NCBI GenBank assembly: GCA_039802605.1
Contig: JBDRWW010000004.1
Span: forward strand, 1-64,000
DNA length: 64,000 nt
From: a candidate division WOR-3 bacterium
Lineage (GTDB): Bacteria > Hydrothermota > Hydrothermia > LBFQ01
Direction of reading: 5' to 3'
The position numbers were made by a program, and so were the translations under genes. Shown here piece after piece: positions 51,737 through 62,455 of this stretch (position 1 is the first letter of the stretch; each line of letters begins with the position of its first letter). Below the pieces are notes generated by a model. It saw only the letters and a list, made by a program, of their open reading frames with translations. It did no database searches and was not told where the DNA came from.

Positions 51737-52441
51737 TCAGAAAACTATCCTTATCCTGCCAACAAAACCTTCCTTTACCTCTACCTCAACCACGCTCATC
51801 GCGCAGTTTATAACAACCGTTTCTTTAAACCTTATCCATCTACCCCCATAGTTGTGGGCGTGTCCGCACAATACAAGGGGAACCCAATGGGAATAAATTT
51901 CCAAAAACCCCCTTAAAGACTTTGAACCTATCTTTGTACCCCTTGGAATCTTATCCAAAATCCCATAAGGTGGTGCATGTGAAACTATTATCATCCTTTC
52001 CCCAACTTTTAAGGCATTCTCCAAAACTTCCCAATAATATCCCTCTTCCCTCCTCGTAATTCCCCCTATGGGATCGGTTGAACCCTCTAAACCAACAAAA
52101 TTATAAAAGCACCTAAACGATTTTCCGCTTATTCTTATTGCTCCCTTAGAATTTAGGTTAATCATAGGGTCGTCGTTTCCTTCAACATACAGAAAAGCCT
52201 TTTTGGGTATATTTACCAACTTACTTAAAATACCCTCTGATTTCCCATACTTCCTATAATGCCCGTTTATATATCCTTCAAGGGATTTGTCCATAACCGG
52301 ATAATCCCTTTCCGATATGAGGTTTAAAATCCCATCCCCTGCAAATATCAGAAAATCCGGAACATCACACTTTTTTAATACCTCAACCAAAAAATCACCC
52401 TTTAACTTCCCCTGCCAATCGGAAAAGCATAAAATTTTCAC
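51737..52441 (-). CDS. Calcineurin-like metallophosphoesterase
   Basis: SDWQG, AGD, GNDD, SHAPP, GHAH. Confidence 0.8.
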   Translation of the reverse strand: MKILCFSDWQGKLKGDFLVEVLKKCDVPDFLIFAGDGILNLISERDYPVMDKSLEGYINGHYRKYGKSEGILSKLVNIPKKAFLYVEGNDDPMINLNSKGAIRISGKSFRCFYNFVGLEGSTDPIGGITRREEGYYWEVLENALKVGERMIIVSHAPPYGILDKIPRGTKIGSKSLRGFLEIYSHWVPLVLCGHAHNYGGRWIRFKETVVINCAMSVVEVEVKEGFVGRIRIVF

Positions 52442-54798: not shown

Positions 54799-54981
54799 CA
54801 GCGGGGGTGTTCAAAGTAGTCGGTTTATTGCGTTGAAAGGGGCAGATGGATATATACCACGAGGCCGTTTTATCCTTCGCAAGTGAGTACATAAATAGGC
54901 TTGTTAATCATAATGCCTTTGAGCGGGGGCGATCAAAACACTTTACAAAATCAACTTATACGGCTTTATTATTCTTACCCT

Positions 54982-55086
54982 ATGAAAAGGGGGGATACGG
55001 TTAAAATGTTAAGGGGTTTGAATGAAGTTAAAAACGAGGAATTGGGCGACTTAAAGGAGGAGGTTAAGGATATGGTTTTAAAATAG
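54982..55086 (+). CDS. Possible 34-aa leader peptide of the island operon
   Basis: ATG 9 nt after TATTAT, the same geometry as host genes; stop is next to the SD of the 55098 gene. Confidence 0.35.
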   Translation: MKRGDTVKMLRGLNEVKNEELGDLKEEVKDMVLK

Positions 55087-55097
55087 GAGGTTGAGGT

Positions 55098-58000
55098 ATG
55101 AGGATAATAAGCGGTAAATCTTTAAGGAAGATATTAGCAAAAGGGCGCTCAGGCTATGATTTGGATTTTGTGGGTTATGAGCACAAAGGTAAATACGGCT
55201 TTTTCAACTTTATGCACGGTGAGAAAGATGATATAAGGAACTATTTAGAGAGTATATTAAAGACGGCTAACGATGATCAGGTTATAGATGAATTTATACA
55301 AAACGCCTTTGATGCTAATGCAACGAAGGTTTATATAATCCTCATTGAAGAAAAATACCTATTGGTTATAAACAACGGTAAAAAGTTTAAAATTCAAGAG
55401 ATAAAGAATATCCTAAACATAGGGCAGAGTGAGAAGTCAAAGGATTGTAGCAAGATAGGTAAGTTTGGGATAGGTTTTAAGTTGATTCATAGGCTTGTAG
55501 GCTCTGGGACGGGTATAAACGAAATTATGAATTACAAAGGGCCTATAATGTTCTCTTGGAATAACGGTGGTTTATGTAAAATCGTAGGAAAAACACCAGA
55601 GGATATTTTGAATTACATACAAGACTGTCCAGAGGATATATTGAATTACCTACAATACTGTAAAAACGAAAAAAAAATTGTGGATTACCAATTCCTTTTC
55701 AAGTTCATACTAACAGCATTCCCTACAACACCCGGCGAGATCGTGAAAGATTTAAAATATAAAGAGGATGAACTTTTTAAAAAAGATGAGTTTGAAACTT
55801 TCTTAAATGTTGTAAGGAAAGCTATAGGAAAACAACATATAAACTTTGAAGAGGGCAGTTTGTTTTTTGTCGAAGTTCCGAAAGAAAAGATGGAAATCTT
55901 GGAAAAAAACAAACAAAATATACAAGATGCCTTGGAGTATTCCCTTGCTATAATATCAAAACACTACTCTAAGAACAACTTGGAGGTTTTTCTTTTTGAT
56001 CAAAAAATAACACCACCAAAGAATGTTAAAGTTGTTGATATAAGTGGGAATGAAAAAACTGATGATAATTGTGATGAAAAGACATACCTAATATATCCCG
56101 TTGATGGTAATAAGCCGAACTTTTACCTATTTTTCCCGGTTAGAGATGAAAGGCATAAATGGAATATAGCATTGCATTCAAATCTGTTTAAAACCCAATC
56201 AAACAGGACAAAGTTAGATAATACTTGTTATCCAGAAATAGATTATGTTCTTGATAGGGTATTAAGGGTATTAAGAAATAACCAAAACAAAGACCTGCTA
56301 AAAGCGATAATACAAAGCAATATATGCGATGCAAATTGCCAAATATGTGAAAAGTTTAAAGTGTTTGTGAGTAAAGTTCTTAAGATATGGCCGACTTATG
56401 ATTGTGATCCGGATAATTTGACGCCATTAAATCAAACCGGAAAAAATCCTGCTATAAAGGACAGTGATGTAAATATCAAACCACCGGATGGTTATGTATG
56501 GCTTTGGGATGACAATGGTAATTTAAGGGCTAATTTGGAAGCATGGCTTAATAAAACCGGGGAAAAATATTATAAGATGCATATAGTTGATATATTGGAC
56601 AAACATTATAAACTGAGAATAAACGATATAACGCGAGTCCTATGCACAGAAAATTATGTAGATGAGATAAATAAAATACACAATGAGATGGTTCAATTGC
56701 TTAATACATCAAAAGTGCAATCCAAAGATATAATTAAAACTTTTGATAACTGGAACATTTTGGCTTTTCAAAATTCATCAAATCAAACAGATTTTTTGAA
56801 TATATCGGGTTATCATCAAAAAATTAACCAAGGATACATTGTTTTGAGCAAGGGACATCCCGAAACCCAAGAAATAAAAAAGTTAATGCAAGGTTTTTGG
56901 ATAGCCGAAATTCCGGAAGATATATTCTCAAAGTTAACAAAGTTAAAAAACAACATGAGGCATTTCATTGATTGGGTAAATTCTCAACAAAGATCTTGGG
57001 ATATTAGCTCAAAAAAGGAAATCCTTCAAATTTGTATAAATATTTCGGATCAAAAAATAAGTAGTGGGTATTGGGGTGGTTATACAAGCAATACAATTAG
57101 GGATTTAAAAATTTTTAAGAGTGCTAACGGGCAAACCAAACCCCTTAGAGAATTAATACAACATAGTGGAAAAAACTGGTTAAACGATTGGATAATGGAT
57201 AAAAATGAGTATATTCAAGTTCAGGGCTTGGTAGATCAATACCTTATGACCGATGAGGAGATTTATGATAATATATATGTAAATAAATTATCGGAATTTA
57301 TTCAAAACTCAAGTAATGCTAATGATATTTTAGACGATGCTTTTGCTTTATATCAAAAAATTACAAACAAACAACCTTGTCAGGGTTTCAGCAATAAGTA
57401 TTACCATAGGAAACTTAATAATAATGTTATTAGTGCCCTTAAAAAACTTGGCATAAATGTTATAGAAGACTATGTGTTTAATTGGATAAATGGGGATAAA
57501 CAAAAAGAAAATATGCTGGGGTTAAACCAATATCACCAGCAATTATCAAATTACTTGATTAACAATAACAATAACTTCACTCTTCAACAAAGTCAAATAA
57601 ACCAAAACGAGTTTCAAAACTTGATAGATTTCCTTTCGCAAACGGGAGATAGCAGCTTTTTCCAGCATTACATCTTTGAAGAGAATAATTATCAATATAC
57701 CCTAATCAAGAAGGGGAATAATGAACAGGTTTATTTGGGGGAAAATATAAACCCGCAATTAAAGAGTTTTCTCAAACAAAACCACATATATGTTATAGAA
57801 AATCAAAACATTAGTCAATATATTGGAAACATTGGAATAAAAAAGGGTAAAAAGGAAATTGTTGAAAAATTAAACATAACAGTTGATATTACATACAATA
57901 ACGGTAATATAACCGAAATTTATGTGAAGGGGAGTAATAATTCTCCCCTAAATTGGGAAAACAATCAAAACAACAATAAAGATGCCATAGCACAACTTTT

Positions 58001-58832
58001 GGAATGGATTATAATCAACTGGAATAAAAATTGGAAACAAAAAATAAATATAAACTCTCAAAATTTAACCAATTACTCAAGTAAGCAGTTTAAAAATAGA
58101 AAATGGGAAAATTTGGGCTTGGATATAAATCAAATAATAATTACCCAACAAAACTTCAATACTAATGACTTCTCTCAGGTTTTGGCGGGATTTATAGGAA
58201 ATAACAATTTACAGCAAGATATAAACAACAACTTCTTTGATCCTATTGAATTGGAAGATAATGAAATTTACAGTCAAATACGAAATCCAGACAACGACCA
58301 CCAAAAGGTTTTTGTTCTGTTGTATGAGTTGGAAAATAATAATGTATCACAATCCAAATTTACGAATAACCAAATTCAAAAATTAAACATAAATTCAAAT
58401 TCGGGGTTAGAAATAGACAAAATTAAAGAAGAAATTAGGGTTTTATCTAACGAAAGTAAAATTCCACCTATGATAATTGAACCGTTTTTAAAAGAAAGTA
58501 TTATTATCCACTACCCTGTAAATGGAGATAATGAAAAGAAAAAGCTTATGAAAAAACTCTACGAAGAATGGAAAAACATAAAACCTGGTAAAATAAACTT
58601 TGTTTGCAATTGGAAAAATAAAAGTTGCGAATGCGGATTTAATGATTTTGAGAAATACATATACCCTGACGATTTGGCAATTGAAACCGAGAAAATACCA
58701 GACTGGCTAAGGGTTAATAACAATAATAATGATTTTAAAGAGTTCTTAAAAGTTTTAGGGGTAAGGGTTAAGGATAAAAATGAGGATGATGAGGTTAAAT
58801 TAAGGAAGAAAATAAAGGAAAAGGAGGTGTAA
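55098..58832 (+). CDS. Sacsin-like (GHKL/HSP90-type) ATPase with a long Asn/Gln-rich C-terminal region
   Basis: DEFIQNAFDANA (N-box), NNGKKF, IGQSEK and IGKFGIGFK motifs; FYLFFP...ALHSNLF transducer-like region; SD AGGAGG. Confidence 0.8.
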   Translation: MRIISGKSLRKILAKGRSGYDLDFVGYEHKGKYGFFNFMHGEKDDIRNYLESILKTANDDQVIDEFIQNAFDANATKVYIILIEEKYLLVINNGKKFKIQEIKNILNIGQSEKSKDCSKIGKFGIGFKLIHRLVGSGTGINEIMNYKGPIMFSWNNGGLCKIVGKTPEDILNYIQDCPEDILNYLQYCKNEKKIVDYQFLFKFILTAFPTTPGEIVKDLKYKEDELFKKDEFETFLNVVRKAIGKQHINFEEGSLFFVEVPKEKMEILEKNKQNIQDALEYSLAIISKHYSKNNLEVFLFDQKITPPKNVKVVDISGNEKTDDNCDEKTYLIYPVDGNKPNFYLFFPVRDERHKWNIALHSNLFKTQSNRTKLDNTCYPEIDYVLDRVLRVLRNNQNKDLLKAIIQSNICDANCQICEKFKVFVSKVLKIWPTYDCDPDNLTPLNQTGKNPAIKDSDVNIKPPDGYVWLWDDNGNLRANLEAWLNKTGEKYYKMHIVDILDKHYKLRINDITRVLCTENYVDEINKIHNEMVQLLNTSKVQSKDIIKTFDNWNILAFQNSSNQTDFLNISGYHQKINQGYIVLSKGHPETQEIKKLMQGFWIAEIPEDIFSKLTKLKNNMRHFIDWVNSQQRSWDISSKKEILQICINISDQKISSGYWGGYTSNTIRDLKIFKSANGQTKPLRELIQHSGKNWLNDWIMDKNEYIQVQGLVDQYLMTDEEIYDNIYVNKLSEFIQNSSNANDILDDAFALYQKITNKQPCQGFSNKYYHRKLNNNVISALKKLGINVIEDYVFNWINGDKQKENMLGLNQYHQQLSNYLINNNNNFTLQQSQINQNEFQNLIDFLSQTGDSSFFQHYIFEENNYQYTLIKKGNNEQVYLGENINPQLKSFLKQNHIYVIENQNISQYIGNIGIKKGKKEIVEKLNITVDITYNNGNITEIYVKGSNNSPLNWENNQNNNKDAIAQLLEWIIINWNKNWKQKININSQNLTNYSSKQFKNRKWENLGLDINQIIITQQNFNTNDFSQVLAGFIGNNNLQQDINNNFFDPIELEDNEIYSQIRNPDNDHQKVFVLLYELENNNVSQSKFTNNQIQKLNINSNSGLEIDKIKEEIRVLSNESKIPPMIIEPFLKESIIIHYPVNGDNEKKKLMKKLYEEWKNIKPGKINFVCNWKNKSCECGFNDFEKYIYPDDLAIETEKIPDWLRVNNNNNDFKEFLKVLGVRVKDKNEDDEVKLRKKIKEKEV
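55596..55661 (+). repeat. 33-bp imperfect in-frame tandem duplication (2 copies)
   Basis: ccagaggatattttgaattacatacaagactgt / ccagaggatatattgaattacctacaatactgt, encoding PEDILNYIQDC / PEDILNYLQYC. Confidence 0.85.
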
Positions 58833-58833
58833 T

Positions 58834-61800
58834 ATGAGTTGGCAAAACACCATTCAATGGCTTAAAGACAAAACCGTTAAAATGGATATAAAAGATAATG
58901 ATGAGATTTTAGAACTTTTATCCAAATGTTTGAATTCGCAGGGCCAAAATCAAAATATCGTCGTTCCTGTCCTTACCCAAAAAAACGGGATCTTGGCATA
59001 TAGGTTTGAAGAAATAAAAACAAATGATGACTATATTTTTTATACAGATGAAGATTTGAATAGCTTAGGCTTGGATGAAAATGTATTATTACAAAGTTTA
59101 AACAACACTAAACTCGTATGGGCTGGAAAGGATAACCAAAGCAAAAACTGGAAAAGTTTGCTTGATAATCAAAAAGATATAAATTCCCTTGTTCAACCGA
59201 GTAAAAACCACTTAGATAGCAACTTACCCAATGATGTTTTAAACAATAACAATATAAACAATATATACATTTACGATGGCCGGATATACTTAAACATCAA
59301 AGGTGTTGATATACCTTCAAATAAAAACCATATACCTCTAAATGGAAATAATTTATACAAAAACGATAACGAGTTTAAAGATATATGGGATTATATTGGA
59401 CAAAATCTATATCCAGACTTCTCTCCGGATGATTCCAGCATTAATAGCAGCCTTGATGCCGAGGTGGTTAAAGAGTATATGAAACAGAAGAAAAAGGACA
59501 TTATTATCTTCAATGGCAGTATAAAAATAAAGGATAAGAACGGCAAGATTTACACGATTTCAAAAGACGAAGTAGTATTTGGAAATGCAGTATATTATAA
59601 GGATTTATTAACTTGTAAAACTAAAAATAACATAACTTATAATGACCCAATAACATTTGCCATTCAAAACAACATTTTCACACCAAATGTTATTATTCAA
59701 GGATTTAATAAAAATAACGCGTCTGCCTTCTTACAGCAATTACAAAAACATAAGGTTGAAGTCCTGAAAGTCATAGAAGGGAAAGTTGAAAATCTTTCCC
59801 ACAACAAACTTTCCATCGAATTAACCGTTGAATGGCTTTTCTGGGCTACAATATGGGAATATTTGGAAACATATATAACTCCACGAAAACTAAAAATTAC
59901 ATCAAACTATATATATTATGAAAACCAAAACAAAATCGTTATACCTATGGATTATAAGGTTGGTATTGAAGAAATTGAGATTAAATACTTAGAATTATAC
60001 TTACTCGGAAATGTTAAACTTTATTCCGCTAATCAGGGAATTGATAACTTGGGTTGGAATAATGACGGTTTGGCTTTACAAATACAACCAAATTGGACGG
60101 GGGGAGATATACCGGATAAACTAAATTGTGGTGGTGCAAGCTATGATTTGGCGATTAACAATAAGGGCGAAATAGTTGTAAAAAACAATCCTCAACTTTC
60201 TGGAATAGGAACAATTAACGGGGTTCAAGTTAAAGTAAATAACGGAAAAGTTGAAATGCATAATAACAAACCGATACCCTTAAAAATCTTTGCAAAAATT
60301 GAATACAATGCAAGCCAGATTTTTAGGGATATAGTGGTTAATTACTTTTCGGGGATAATAAACACATCCGTTTGGCAAAGTAAAATTTCCGAGGAAATCG
60401 CTAAAATTATAAATCAAGCTCCCAACAACGGAAACCAAAGCAACCCACCATTCGTTTGGGGACCACCGGCAACCGGAAAAACCACATATTTGGCAAATAG
60501 AATAATTGATTACCTTAATAATGGTAAAAAGGTAATAGCCCTTACACCCACAAATAAGGCGGCGGATGTGTTAATAGAAAGAATTTTAAGTGAAAACCCG
60601 TCCGCAAATGCTTATAGGTTCCCAAACACAAGATCCAATAATCCAAATGTACATCAAAAAATTCTAAGACGGGATGGTAGCCCCCCATCCCCTCCGTACG
60701 CAATCATAACCACAATCCACAGGTTTATATTTGACAGTATCCAAAATCAGAAACTGGAATCCTTGGATTGGGATGTTGTTATTATTGATGAGGCTTCAAT
60801 GGTTGAATTGCCTTTTGTGTTTTATGTAATTCATAGTTATATAAATAGTTATATAAATAAAAAAGTTGAGTTAATCATAGCGGGGGATCCGGAGCAGTTA
60901 ACCCCCGTGGGTAAAACACCCGGAGAAAAGCGAAACATTAAGGGTTATTCAACGGAAAACATCTATACGGTTTTGGATTTGACTTTTAATAATGTTAATA
61001 TTAATCGTAATAATACACGGGTTAATGTCGGGGTAAAGAGTTTTCAGGTCATACCCTACACACACAAAATAAACAACCAAAACATAAATGTAATAATTTT
61101 AACAGAACAACACAGAAGTGTCCAGGAAATAGGTGAGGTATATAGCCGCTATCGTTATGGAGGGAAATTAACCCATACAAGGGGGTCTTCAAGTGGAAAG
61201 ATAACCATAAACTTTTACAATAACCAAATTACAATATCGCCCATAACGGTAATAGAGTTTGACATTAGTTCCTCGTCCGGAATACCCACAAGTCCCAACG
61301 ATATTGGAAAACTGGAATATTCATCTTATCATCTGTTTTCGGCAGTTTTGGCCGTTGAGTTGGCAAAAGAACTGGAAAATCAATTGAGAGATTACAACAT
61401 AGGTATAATTTCTCCTTATGGAGCTCAGGTAAAGATTATGAGACAATTGGCTGGGCCTTATAGCTTGAGTTTAACGAGAACAACCGTTGATACCGTTCAC
61501 GGTTTTCAAGGAGATGAGAGGGATATTATAATATTAGTAATGAACCCACCTTCTCAAAAACCCGGCCCACACTCACACTTCAACAATCACAGAATAGTGA
61601 ATGTTGGAATAAGCCGTGCGAAGGATTTCTTAATAATATTAAAACCGGCAATTATAACCAATTCCGAAATTGATAATGCTTTAAGCCATGCTCGAAGCCT
61701 TCCAAAAATTAACAGTAATATAGTGAATCAAATAAATAACAAAATAGAAATCTTCAGCCACCTTGAAGTTAATTTATATTCTCAAAGTTTGCTATCTTCC

Positions 61801-61860
61801 ATGACCAAAAATTATATATTCTTCATAGATTGGGATGTGCTGGATATTTTGGTTAAATAG
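58834..61860 (+). CDS. Superfamily 1 (Upf1/DNA2/NAM7-like) helicase with a long unknown N-terminal region
   Basis: GPPATGKT, LTPTNKAADVL, IIDEASM, AGDPEQL, TEQHRS, IISPYGAQ, TVHGFQGDERD, NVGISRAK; SD AAGGAGGT. Confidence 0.88.
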   Translation: MSWQNTIQWLKDKTVKMDIKDNDEILELLSKCLNSQGQNQNIVVPVLTQKNGILAYRFEEIKTNDDYIFYTDEDLNSLGLDENVLLQSLNNTKLVWAGKDNQSKNWKSLLDNQKDINSLVQPSKNHLDSNLPNDVLNNNNINNIYIYDGRIYLNIKGVDIPSNKNHIPLNGNNLYKNDNEFKDIWDYIGQNLYPDFSPDDSSINSSLDAEVVKEYMKQKKKDIIIFNGSIKIKDKNGKIYTISKDEVVFGNAVYYKDLLTCKTKNNITYNDPITFAIQNNIFTPNVIIQGFNKNNASAFLQQLQKHKVEVLKVIEGKVENLSHNKLSIELTVEWLFWATIWEYLETYITPRKLKITSNYIYYENQNKIVIPMDYKVGIEEIEIKYLELYLLGNVKLYSANQGIDNLGWNNDGLALQIQPNWTGGDIPDKLNCGGASYDLAINNKGEIVVKNNPQLSGIGTINGVQVKVNNGKVEMHNNKPIPLKIFAKIEYNASQIFRDIVVNYFSGIINTSVWQSKISEEIAKIINQAPNNGNQSNPPFVWGPPATGKTTYLANRIIDYLNNGKKVIALTPTNKAADVLIERILSENPSANAYRFPNTRSNNPNVHQKILRRDGSPPSPPYAIITTIHRFIFDSIQNQKLESLDWDVVIIDEASMVELPFVFYVIHSYINSYINKKVELIIAGDPEQLTPVGKTPGEKRNIKGYSTENIYTVLDLTFNNVNINRNNTRVNVGVKSFQVIPYTHKINNQNINVIILTEQHRSVQEIGEVYSRYRYGGKLTHTRGSSSGKITINFYNNQITISPITVIEFDISSSSGIPTSPNDIGKLEYSSYHLFSAVLAVELAKELENQLRDYNIGIISPYGAQVKIMRQLAGPYSLSLTRTTVDTVHGFQGDERDIIILVMNPPSQKPGPHSHFNNHRIVNVGISRAKDFLIILKPAIITNSEIDNALSHARSLPKINSNIVNQINNKIEIFSHLEVNLYSQSLLSSMTKNYIFFIDWDVLDILVK

Positions 61861-62400
61861 CATTGCTTTCCTTATAGCGCTAAAGACTATTTCACCCCCA
61901 TCGCTTTTCCTTAGTAAGAGTATTCACCGCAAAAGATTTTTAATTCCTCGCTGAGGCTAACGAATACCTTTTGGTTTGCCACCTTTTCCCAAGGAAAAAC
62001 ATCATCAAAAACCCCTTAGAAGTCCCTTACCCATTGGAGCGCATTATCCAACAAAAAGAAAAGCGGGATAATAATCCCCTTTGTCTATTACCTTCTTTAA
62101 GTGGGCATAGGCTAATATCCTCCTGAAAAATATTTCAAGGGTATAGAGGGTAAAGGAATCGTGAGGATTACCCACACTTGTGGGTATCAACAGTTTTTGT
62201 TCGGGTATCCCCGTATAAAGTGATGTGATATATTTCCGTTTTGCCCGGAATACCAAAGGTATATATCCTTTAAATGCTTTAACACTTTGGGATTTTTTTA
62301 GAAGTTGTTTAAAAGGGTTTTGGCTTTGGAAGATTCATTCATATAAAAATTAAGGCATATTACAGCTATATCCTTTAAGCAGTTTGTCCATGCTCTTGGG
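61861..62400 (-). pseudogene. Possible decayed gene remnant at the right edge of the island
   Basis: Protein-like minus-strand fragments (62044-62256 plus DNALQWVRDF*...FDDVFPWEKV) broken by stops and frame changes. Confidence 0.3.
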
Positions 62401-62455
62401 TACCGTAGGGTTGGAATTATAAATCGGAAAACCCCTCAACTTTATAATACCCAGT

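Follow-up and report, generated by a model that had tools for sequence, protein, structure and literature searches.

Tiamat is a prokaryotic protein related to NO VEIN of plants and, at a greater distance, to human sacsin. The present analysis concerns a Tiamat-like locus split over two genes, which lies near the end of a 64,000-nucleotide stretch of DNA (hereafter the window: positions 1 to 64,000 of contig JBDRWW010000004.1, assembly GCA_039802605.1) from a candidate division WOR-3 bacterium. In the accessible part of a preprint of 1 October 2026 (10.64898/2026.09.30.754977), Tiamat is defined by an ATPase together with a NOV_C nuclease, and protection against phage, known only for the Bacillus cereus Tiamat, is cited, as is its loss in an E44A ATPase mutant. 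A second preprint, also accessible in part, has NO VEIN as its subject (10.64898/2026.09.30.755639). The former describes helicase-bearing types as well. In Type III-B Tiamat-like proteins the nuclease is replaced by a fused Upf1-like superfamily 1 (SF1) helicase; in Types II-B and VI-A a nuclease-less Tiamat-like gene is often found beside one for a Upf1-like helicase-PIN protein, so that the effector is 'supplied in trans'. According to the authors of that preprint, no Tiamat-helicase complex has been reconstituted so far.

How does the window locus compare with these systems? It consists of two large open reading frames (ORFs) on the plus strand, 55098..58832 (1244 amino acids (aa), P0001) and 58834..61860 (1008 aa, P0002), with a gap of 1 nt between them. 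As far as the accessible part of the preprint goes, the pair belongs to the already described kind in which a Tiamat-like protein is combined with a Upf1-like helicase. It differs in that the Type III-B architecture is split at a conserved point, that an interface is predicted between a helix of one protein and a connector of the other, and that neither a PIN domain nor another nuclease is detectable. The reading favoured here, with moderate confidence, is that of an operon of two translationally coupled genes which encodes a split Tiamat-like defence machine in which the docked helicase acts as the effector. The parts of the two genes are as follows.

55098..58832, plus strand: gene 1, Tiamat-like (TmtA subfamily PDLC03970) GHKL ATPase and core, without the C-terminal nuclease
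55227..55502, plus strand: Bergerat-fold ATP-binding domain, gene 1 residues 44-135, with N-box E65/N69/D72 and lid G121/G124/G126
58674..58829, plus strand: predicted docking segment at the C-terminus of gene 1 (residues 1193-1244); E1198 and R1236 are invariant, and a KLRK helix closes it
58834..61860, plus strand: gene 2, helicase partner of gene 1, apparently translationally coupled to it
58834..59133, plus strand: connector domain of gene 2, residues 1-100, predicted docking surface
59134..59718, plus strand: gene 2 residues 101-295, beta-rich and helical, confidently modelled; no solved fold matches
59719..60423, plus strand: gene 2 residues 296-530, helical stalk and beta-barrel, weakly like domain 1B of Upf1-like helicases
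60424..61653, plus strand: SF1 (Upf1-like) helicase core, gene 2 residues 531-940, from Pfam and motifs
61654..61857, plus strand: conserved C-terminal tail of gene 2, residues 941-1008, common to the fused relatives (hhalign)

The product of gene 1 is a Tiamat-family protein that has lost its nuclease. Its match to the PADLOC TmtA model PDLC03970 (E 1.6e-96) pairs residues 1-1243 with model positions 1-1223 (of 1552). The first-pass annotation of this DNA had been unable to match the pair to a named system; this full-length match, and the helicase-bearing types described in the accessible part of the Tiamat preprint, supersede that statement. The GHKL domain is recognised by the Pfam families SACS (4.2e-12) and HATPase_c_3 (1.4e-8) and by NCBIfam P_loop_sacsin (1.4e-18, above its cut-off of 50). 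Beyond these no Pfam family is found at E <= 1, and there is no Pfam match to a nuclease, methylase or TIR domain, nor to NOV_C. In an alignment of P0001 with 12 of its 14 database relatives (A1, 13 sequences; P0003 and P0004, which are near-identical, and the 867-aa P0017 were left out), the Bergerat-fold residues E65, N69, D72, G121, G124 and G126 are invariant (13/13), E1198 and R1236 are invariant too, and G1221 is nearly so.

Two local features of the ATPase domain deserve a remark. The usual G1 box of GHKL proteins is DxGxG, with Asp. In 12 of the 13 members of A1 this box (window 55371-55379, residues 92-94) reads NNG, with Asn for the Asp, and P0005 has NDG. A 33-nt in-frame tandem duplication at 55596-55661, with copies 91% identical, gives rise to a PEDILNY repeat that is not found in the relatives. 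The public contig X9 skips 60 nt at this repeat and has 27 other letters in between; the loop is variable.

Where do the relatives differ from gene 1? P0001 aligns collinearly with them over the ATPase and the core as far as the terminal motif, and it stops 8 residues past R1236, whereas the relatives in A1 extend 274-398 residues beyond this end, and P0005, whose source name is DarT-family, extends 627. Two of these tails reach Pfam NOV_C, with 22.1 and 22.0 bits at a cut-off of 22.1. Inspection by eye indicates that most of the one-piece relatives P0006-P0015 have V at the acidic position of (D/E)xK (LVVKS), while EVK is seen in P0013 and P0016, the only two with a Pfam NOV_C match; some of the relatives' 'nuclease' tails may be inactive. 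Proteins of the P0001 type are rare. A search of 5.8 billion protein clusters gave 15 proteins at E <= 0.001, of which 2 are near-identical to P0001 (one from a metagenome-assembled genome named by NCBI as candidate division WOR-3) and 13 are 26-36% identical to it, mostly with lengths of 1395-1738 aa. The genome scan with P0001 as a single sequence found no relative; alignment-based scans did retrieve relatives.

Gene 2 encodes the helicase. Residues 535-936 match Pfam AAA_12 (8.4e-23), AAA_19 (5.5e-16) and AAA_11 (1.1e-12), and the sequences GPPATGKT (Walker A), TPTNKAAD, DEAS, GDPEQLTPV, TVHGFQGDERD and ISRAK are motifs I, Ia, II, III, V and VI, the residues of which are invariant in the helicase alignment A2. 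The model TIGR00376 (IGHMBP2) is matched at 1.4e-24, under its cut-off. No further Pfam family is found at E <= 1, and no methylase, TIR or nuclease domain, be it PIN, phospholipase D (PLD), HNH or PD-(D/E)xK. Similarly, the five relatives of gene 2 have no PIN family by Pfam at E <= 0.01, and no PLD, HNH or PD-(D/E)xK domain by Pfam. Fold searches of gene 2 list no PIN-like fold and none of the PLD, HNH or PD-(D/E)xK type, although a family that is not listed is not thereby excluded. The initial observations that the GHKL and SF1 motifs are intact and that no nuclease, methylase or TIR motif is seen are in keeping with the alignments A1 and A2 and with Pfam.

The N-terminal 530 residues of gene 2 are less familiar. 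Among 1.84 billion representative proteins they have five real relatives, all of them stand-alone helicases of 679-1064 aa, and E342 is the sole invariant acidic residue in this part of A2. About 530 residues had at first been left without an assigned domain; this number shrinks to about 295, since in a fold comparison residues ~300-525 weakly resemble the stalk and 1B barrel of the Upf1 family. A cryptic nuclease, which the first-pass annotation had suggested looking for, was not found by Foldseek in the N-terminal regions. Against the PDB, the model of residues 1-530 gave a best E of 9e-3 and TM scores <= 0.13, and the model of residues 1-295 gave a best E of 0.38; the proteins listed are beta-rich and unrelated, and they were taken as noise. 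An Atlas search with residues 1-530 returned scores of only 0.77-0.82, which are leads at best.

Is there a protein in which both halves are joined? The helicase alignment was used to scan metagenomes; of the 332 loci that matched, 80 were kept, and the locus counts given here refer to these 80. A main helicase ORF is present in 79 of them and has a length of at least 1380 aa in 63; in at least 41 of the 63, a narrow profile finds a GHKL match within the same long ORF. Four of the 80 loci encode proteins of 2292-2305 aa that contain both halves. The one-piece protein P0026 is 33% identical to P0001 over residues 21-373 (E 2e-51) and 33% identical to P0002 over residues 540-985 (E 4e-60), and it matches the same TmtA model, PDLC03970, up to position 1446. 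When A2 is compared by hhalign with the alignment of fused proteins, A3, residues 485-995 fall on 1765-2289 with probability 100 and E 4.7e-80, the tail included. By these comparisons gene 2 is the C-terminal half that gene 1 lacks, with a helicase in place of the nuclease.

The beginning of gene 2 can probably be placed as well. Its residues 1-100 are likely to be the domain that follows R1236 in the one-piece Tiamats. A profile built from the C-terminal modules of the relatives (n=11, P0005 excluded) scores 15.5 bits on P0002 1-130, a value equalled by 0 of 2000 shuffles (maximum 11.6), and hhalign of the connector with the fused relatives is collinear, with residue 3 of P0002 coming directly after the motif (E 0.017-0.11).

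All four one-piece loci adjoin a neighbour that matches PADLOC: a type I restriction endonuclease, PDC-S68 twice, DruE with DpdE, and WYL. Thus, of the idea that homologues might be fused or lie near defence genes, both parts hold for the fused relatives of ~2300 aa, and the second does not hold for the split-type loci. In 18 of the 80 loci (L015, L034, L035 and 15 others of L005-L084), the fused gene has as its neighbour another helicase-like ORF, 600 aa or longer. The three that were checked, in L015, L034 and L035, are PDC-S68 by PADLOC, a RecD-like candidate defence protein that has no counterpart in the window. A neighbour of the PDC-S68 type could possibly be a third component, or simply a frequent neighbour.

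The division into two genes is not confined to the window. In two genomes of the same family and another genus, G008 and G011, the ATPases are 27-28% and the helicases 36-38% identical to those of the window. Each of these ATPases ends just past the KLRK motif, as in gene 1, and GGAGG stands before each helicase ATG, which either overlaps the stop codon of the ATPase or lies directly next to it. The short contig L001 (2991 bp) has the same junction, at 62-78% identity. Contig L002 is identical to G011:C83 (100% identity) and was counted once, and loci L003 and L004 were ignored, with matches of only 33-39 residues around Walker A. In a tree of 82 helicase cores (a quick IQ-TREE run), the seven split-type sequences group together with a Shimodaira-Hasegawa-like approximate likelihood ratio test (SH-aLRT) value of 99, and the four long fusions group together with a value of 100; the tree is unrooted and thus neutral between fission and fusion. 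The split itself is, by these comparisons, old and conserved. The record labels of L002 (Thermotogota) and L001 (Caldimicrobium) may reflect binning or naming, and they are not used here to claim transfer across phyla.

In the window, GGAGG stands 8 nt 5' of the gene 1 ATG. At the junction, the last codons of gene 1 contain GGAGGTG, after which come TAA, a single base, and the ATG of gene 2 in another frame; this is a classical arrangement for translational coupling of the two genes. The first description of two large co-oriented genes 1 nt apart, each with a strong Shine-Dalgarno sequence, agrees with this. Contigs from three of four public runs (X9, X10, X12) have a 5-nt deletion relative to the window at 58818-58829, which alters the last residues of gene 1. 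Any 5-nt deletion in the junction still leaves two complete ORFs, with an ATGA overlap.

Do the two proteins bind each other? Structure prediction of residues 1040-1244 of P0001 with residues 1-295 of P0002 gave a complex score of 0.69 (0.73, 0.52 and 0.69 in separate runs), and the best of three controls gave 0.02. Among solved complexes, 116 of 157 attain that mark, compared with 2 of 215 mismatched pairs. The runs have at least 80% of contacts in common, and the predicted local distance difference test (pLDDT) values of the partner are at least 84. The predicted interface brings residues 1193-1198 and 1231-1244 of gene 1 together with residues 2-32 and 50-55 of gene 2, and the invariant R1236 contacts residues 6 and 9 of P0002. 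In the prediction, the last helix of gene 1 docks against the helices at the start of gene 2. To our knowledge, no similar complex has been solved.

With these results, the likenesses to the described types can be stated more closely. Like the single-gene prototype of B. cereus, TmtA, gene 1 has an N-terminal Hsp90-like GHKL ATPase with a catalytic Glu, the same family profile, a long variable core and a rare occurrence in prokaryotes. By contrast, the C-terminal PD-(D/E)xK (NOV_C) nuclease that defines Tiamat is not in gene 1, which needs a second gene, and the single-stranded DNase activity of the prototype cannot be assumed for the window pair. Type III-B, as far as its description could be consulted, agrees in its two modules and their order, in helicase cores that are 33-36% identical, and in the conserved tail; the one-piece relatives of ~2300 aa fall under the TmtA subfamily model that gene 1 matches. 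Type III-B is a single polypeptide, whereas in the window the break into two ORFs comes immediately ahead of the connector; moreover, the split-type helicases form a tree group of their own, and their ~295 N-terminal residues are hardly recognisable in the fused forms. Types II-B and VI-A, in the portion of the source at hand, likewise have a nuclease-less Tiamat-like gene directly beside a gene for a Upf1-like helicase, with an effector in trans. In those types the helicase carries a PIN domain, and no PIN was found in gene 2 (Pfam, fold lists) or in its five relatives (Pfam). The preprint also describes, in the part available, a Type I-G with a NERD-helicase partner, where a C-terminal extension is predicted to recruit the SF1 helicase (AlphaFold3 interface predicted template modelling score 0.67-0.86; 10.64898/2026.09.30.754977); the corresponding values for the window pair are 0.69, and 0.02 for the control. 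Type I-G Tiamat keeps its nuclease and an SH3-type barrel binds the helicase core, whereas the window pair has lost the nuclease, and its terminal helix in gene 1 is predicted to bind the N-terminal connector of gene 2.

The two genes lie within a larger insertion, which is bounded as follows.

54799..62455, no strand assigned: 7.66-kb island, between genes that are adjacent in same-genus genomes
54799..55097, plus strand: upstream non-coding leader, containing the ribosome-binding site of gene 1 and a 61-aa ORF
61861..62455, no strand assigned: downstream non-coding remainder of the island, 595 bp, with no confirmed gene remnant

The presence or absence of the pair in sister genomes, a check proposed at the outset, is informative: two genomes from the genus lack the island at this site, and the orthologues of the flanks are 19 bp (G003:C19) and 21 bp (G001:C63) apart there. 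In the closest genome, G002, both edges of the island are present, on two contig ends. Relatives of P0001 occur in 4 of the 41 related genomes searched, the window's own genome (G000) included, and in G008 the homologous pair is found at another site, between coaX/lepA and the gene for a penicillin-binding protein. Contigs from two other public hot-spring metagenome studies span flank, island and flank (X9, 12,143 nt; X12, 7,889 nt); the public runs listed include none of RNA. The guanine plus cytosine (GC) content in a scan of the window is 0.29-0.33 inside the island and 0.38-0.41 outside. For the two genes it is 0.322, compared with a mean of 0.413 and a standard deviation of 0.020 for windows of equal length across the 1.65-Mb genome (z = -4.55), and only 4 of 1507 such windows are lower, all from one other island on contig C10. 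The empty sites and the composition indicate that the island is foreign in origin and was acquired horizontally. No integrase was found among the flanking ORFs, and no tRNA or direct or inverted repeats bracket the island. In viral contigs, 8 loci match the GHKL domain only (residues ~37-157), which gives no evidence of phage-borne members of the subfamily. Taken with the conserved pairing and the predicted docking, the empty sites and the foreign GC bear out the initial idea of a two-gene, defence-type module whose halves probably cooperate.

How might such a machine work? Gene 1 would be the sensor or clamp half, with an N-terminal GHKL (Hsp90/MutL-type) ATPase, probable ATP-dependent dimerisation and a long variable core, and would end in a short conserved helix at the point where canonical Tiamat has its PD-(D/E)xK nuclease. 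Gene 2 would be the effector half, and its N-terminal connector would bind the gene 1 helix non-covalently. The ATPase cycle of gene 1 may respond to a phage-derived ligand or to nucleic acid, and gene 1 may then load or license the bound helicase, which would translocate on, unwind or strip the invading nucleic acid, DNA or RNA. No nuclease is encoded, and therefore the damage would be done by the helicase itself or by a host nuclease acting on the unwound product. A role against phage, what triggers the system, whether it acts on DNA or RNA, and how it stops infection are all inferred here.

Several points weigh against this proposal. The accessible part of the preprint reports no phage-tested member among the helicase-bearing Tiamat-like types (10.64898/2026.09.30.754977), and for this reason defence is inferred from family and context. 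The context of the split-type loci is not that of defence islands: none of seven neighbours of L002/G011 matches PADLOC at E <= 1e-10, the G008 pair is flanked by housekeeping genes (Pfam), and the neighbours of the window pair give a single weak, partial PADLOC match (PDC-S10, 5e-12, in a flanking ORF). No nuclease or other killing domain was found in either protein by Pfam, or in gene 2 by fold searches. In gene 1, Pfam DUF3684 is not found at E <= 1, though the TmtA profile spans the core, and ATP binding is assumed because the Asp of the G1 box is replaced by Asn. The homology of the connector (P0002 1-100) has weak sequence support, namely the 15.5 bits and the hhalign E of 0.017-0.11; pairwise BLASTP of P0002 with two one-piece relatives is not significant, and the PADLOC TmtA model has no match to P0002 at E <= 1. 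Finally, the gene 1 chain is poorly folded in the predicted complex (pLDDT 43-56), for which shallow alignments were the input.

Could the pair have another function, or none? The closest rival, which nevertheless is unlikely, is an abortive-infection switch, in which the GHKL protein keeps the helicase inactive until a phage trigger releases or activates it and the infected cell dies, with uncontrolled helicase or ATPase activity depleting nucleotides or disrupting replication or translation in host and phage alike. Two polypeptides whose predicted helical interface is small would permit such a release, no nuclease is encoded, and the accessible part of the preprint offers AriA/AriB release in PARIS and nucleotide hydrolysis by GajB as analogies (10.64898/2026.09.30.754977). 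Release is impossible in the existing one-piece relatives, however, and no result obtained here bears on cell death. Considerably less probable is a pair for housekeeping or for maintenance of the element, acting in repair, recombination control or RNA quality control and not in immunity. Its model would be MutL-UvrD, where a GHKL ATPase recruits and loads an SF1 helicase. This analogy, one of logic only, is also drawn in the part of the preprint that could be consulted, and the split-type loci do have housekeeping neighbours. Yet the site is empty in two same-genus genomes, relatives occur in only 4 of 41 related genomes, the GC content is foreign and the insertion sites of G000 and G008 differ, as expected of a mobile island and not of a core-genome pair; nor does Pfam find a MutL_C, DNA_mis_repair or S5 domain in the window pair.

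Two further explanations are both very improbable. That gene 2 is an RNA helicase of the MkoA type, in an RNA-targeting system like Mokosh (MkoA/MkoB, MkoC), is suggested by its PADLOC matches to MkoA (PDLC03920, 7.6e-29) and MkoC (4.1e-16), by the Upf1-like SF1 core that it has in common with Mokosh, and by AAA_11/AAA_12, which represent the Upf1-like class. The MkoA match, however, is limited to the generic C-terminal part of the helicase (645-935 on model positions 791-1072 of 1112), Pfam finds the PLD nuclease of Mokosh neither in the two proteins nor in the ORFs of the flanks, and the partner of gene 2 is a GHKL ATPase of the TmtA family. The locus might equally little be a broken gene, the decaying and non-working remnant of a one-piece Tiamat-helicase fusion of ~2300 aa. 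One-piece relatives do exist, and the public contigs contain small indels, among them the 5-nt indel of the junction in 3 of 4 runs. What speaks against decay is that the same split point recurs at loci that share no more than 27-38% identity and have a GGAGG and an ATG of their own, that the ATPase and helicase motifs are all invariant in ORFs uninterrupted over 1244 and 1008 codons, that the junction deletion keeps both ORFs complete, and that the tree places the seven split-type helicases in a single group.

The split Tiamat-like operon with a docked helicase effector, therefore, remains the preferred reading, and its main interest would lie in offering a naturally separated model for ATPase-effector coupling of the Tiamat/NOV/sacsin type. 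Because the natural split provides separate, coupled proteins with a small, conserved predicted interface, this coupling is directly testable. The proteins may also be stable enough for structural work, because the organisms come from hot springs. The helicase-bearing Tiamat-like types pose the question of how phage is arrested without a recognisable nuclease. For annotation, two calls of 'ATP-binding protein' or 'hypothetical' are replaced by a defined type of system.

A broader proposal, which is tentative and rather doubtful at present, is that Tiamat has a modular 'effector socket'. The KLRK helix with R1236 and the connector would be the point at which effectors (a nuclease, the tail with the source name DarT-like, or a helicase) are exchanged within the TmtA subfamily; in the clade of the window pair the socket would be non-covalent, and a nuclease-free GHKL clamp would control a free-standing Upf1-like helicase that is itself the antiviral effector. 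If this were true, the pair would parallel the eukaryotic antiviral helicases of the Upf1/MOV10/ZNFX1 type, and it would be a minimal two-protein model of how sacsin/NOV-type ATPases signal to C-terminal effectors.

The surroundings of the two genes can be described briefly. The island lies between a gene for a pyridoxal phosphate enzyme upstream (Pfam Cys_Met_Meta_PP, E 3.6e-133) and a 263-aa Acyl-CoA_dh_1-like ORF downstream (E 1.4e-12), in agreement with the trans-sulfuration-type and acyl-CoA-dehydrogenase-like genes named by the first-pass annotation. The 263-aa ORF is not decayed, because its length is about the same in relatives. A decayed fragment had also been reported after gene 2; a gene remnant could not be shown there, since the three small ORFs in 61861-62455 have no Pfam match at E <= 0.1 and neither Rfam nor a tRNA search matched the stretch. 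It is only partly conserved in the sister genome G002, at 75-84% nucleotide identity. The position originally given as the start of the island, 54982, falls in intergenic sequence upstream and coincides with no feature. The island had further been called more A-rich than its flanks, which is only partly true: AT skew is 0.15-0.24 inside, and the upstream flank at 52.5-54.5 kb likewise reaches 0.16-0.20.

Rfam gave no family at E <= 1, and the search for tRNA and tmRNA genes was likewise negative. Promoter-like sites (39, compared with 35.3 +/- 5.4 in shuffles) and terminator-like sites (8, compared with 5.6 +/- 2.4) show no excess. In the leader, a small ORF at 54901..55086 encodes 61 aa from a TTG, or 34 aa from an internal ATG, and stops 12 nt 5' of gene 1. 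It has no Pfam match and the leader has no Rfam match; the ORF could be a leader peptide or due to chance. Three genes away from the island, the upstream minus-strand ORF 51740-52441 (234 aa) has a partial PADLOC match to PDC-S10 over residues 151-220 (E 5.2e-12), which probably reflects generic domain similarity.

The only region of the genome with a lower GC content than the two genes lies on contig C10 of G000, at ~17.8-24 kb (locus L106, 5843-12054), where it is 0.28-0.30. Its genes encode a ResIII/SNF2-type helicase of 984 aa, an N6_N4 DNA methylase of 854 aa and a TdeIII-type restriction endonuclease of 235 aa, and from this gene content the region looks like a restriction-modification island.

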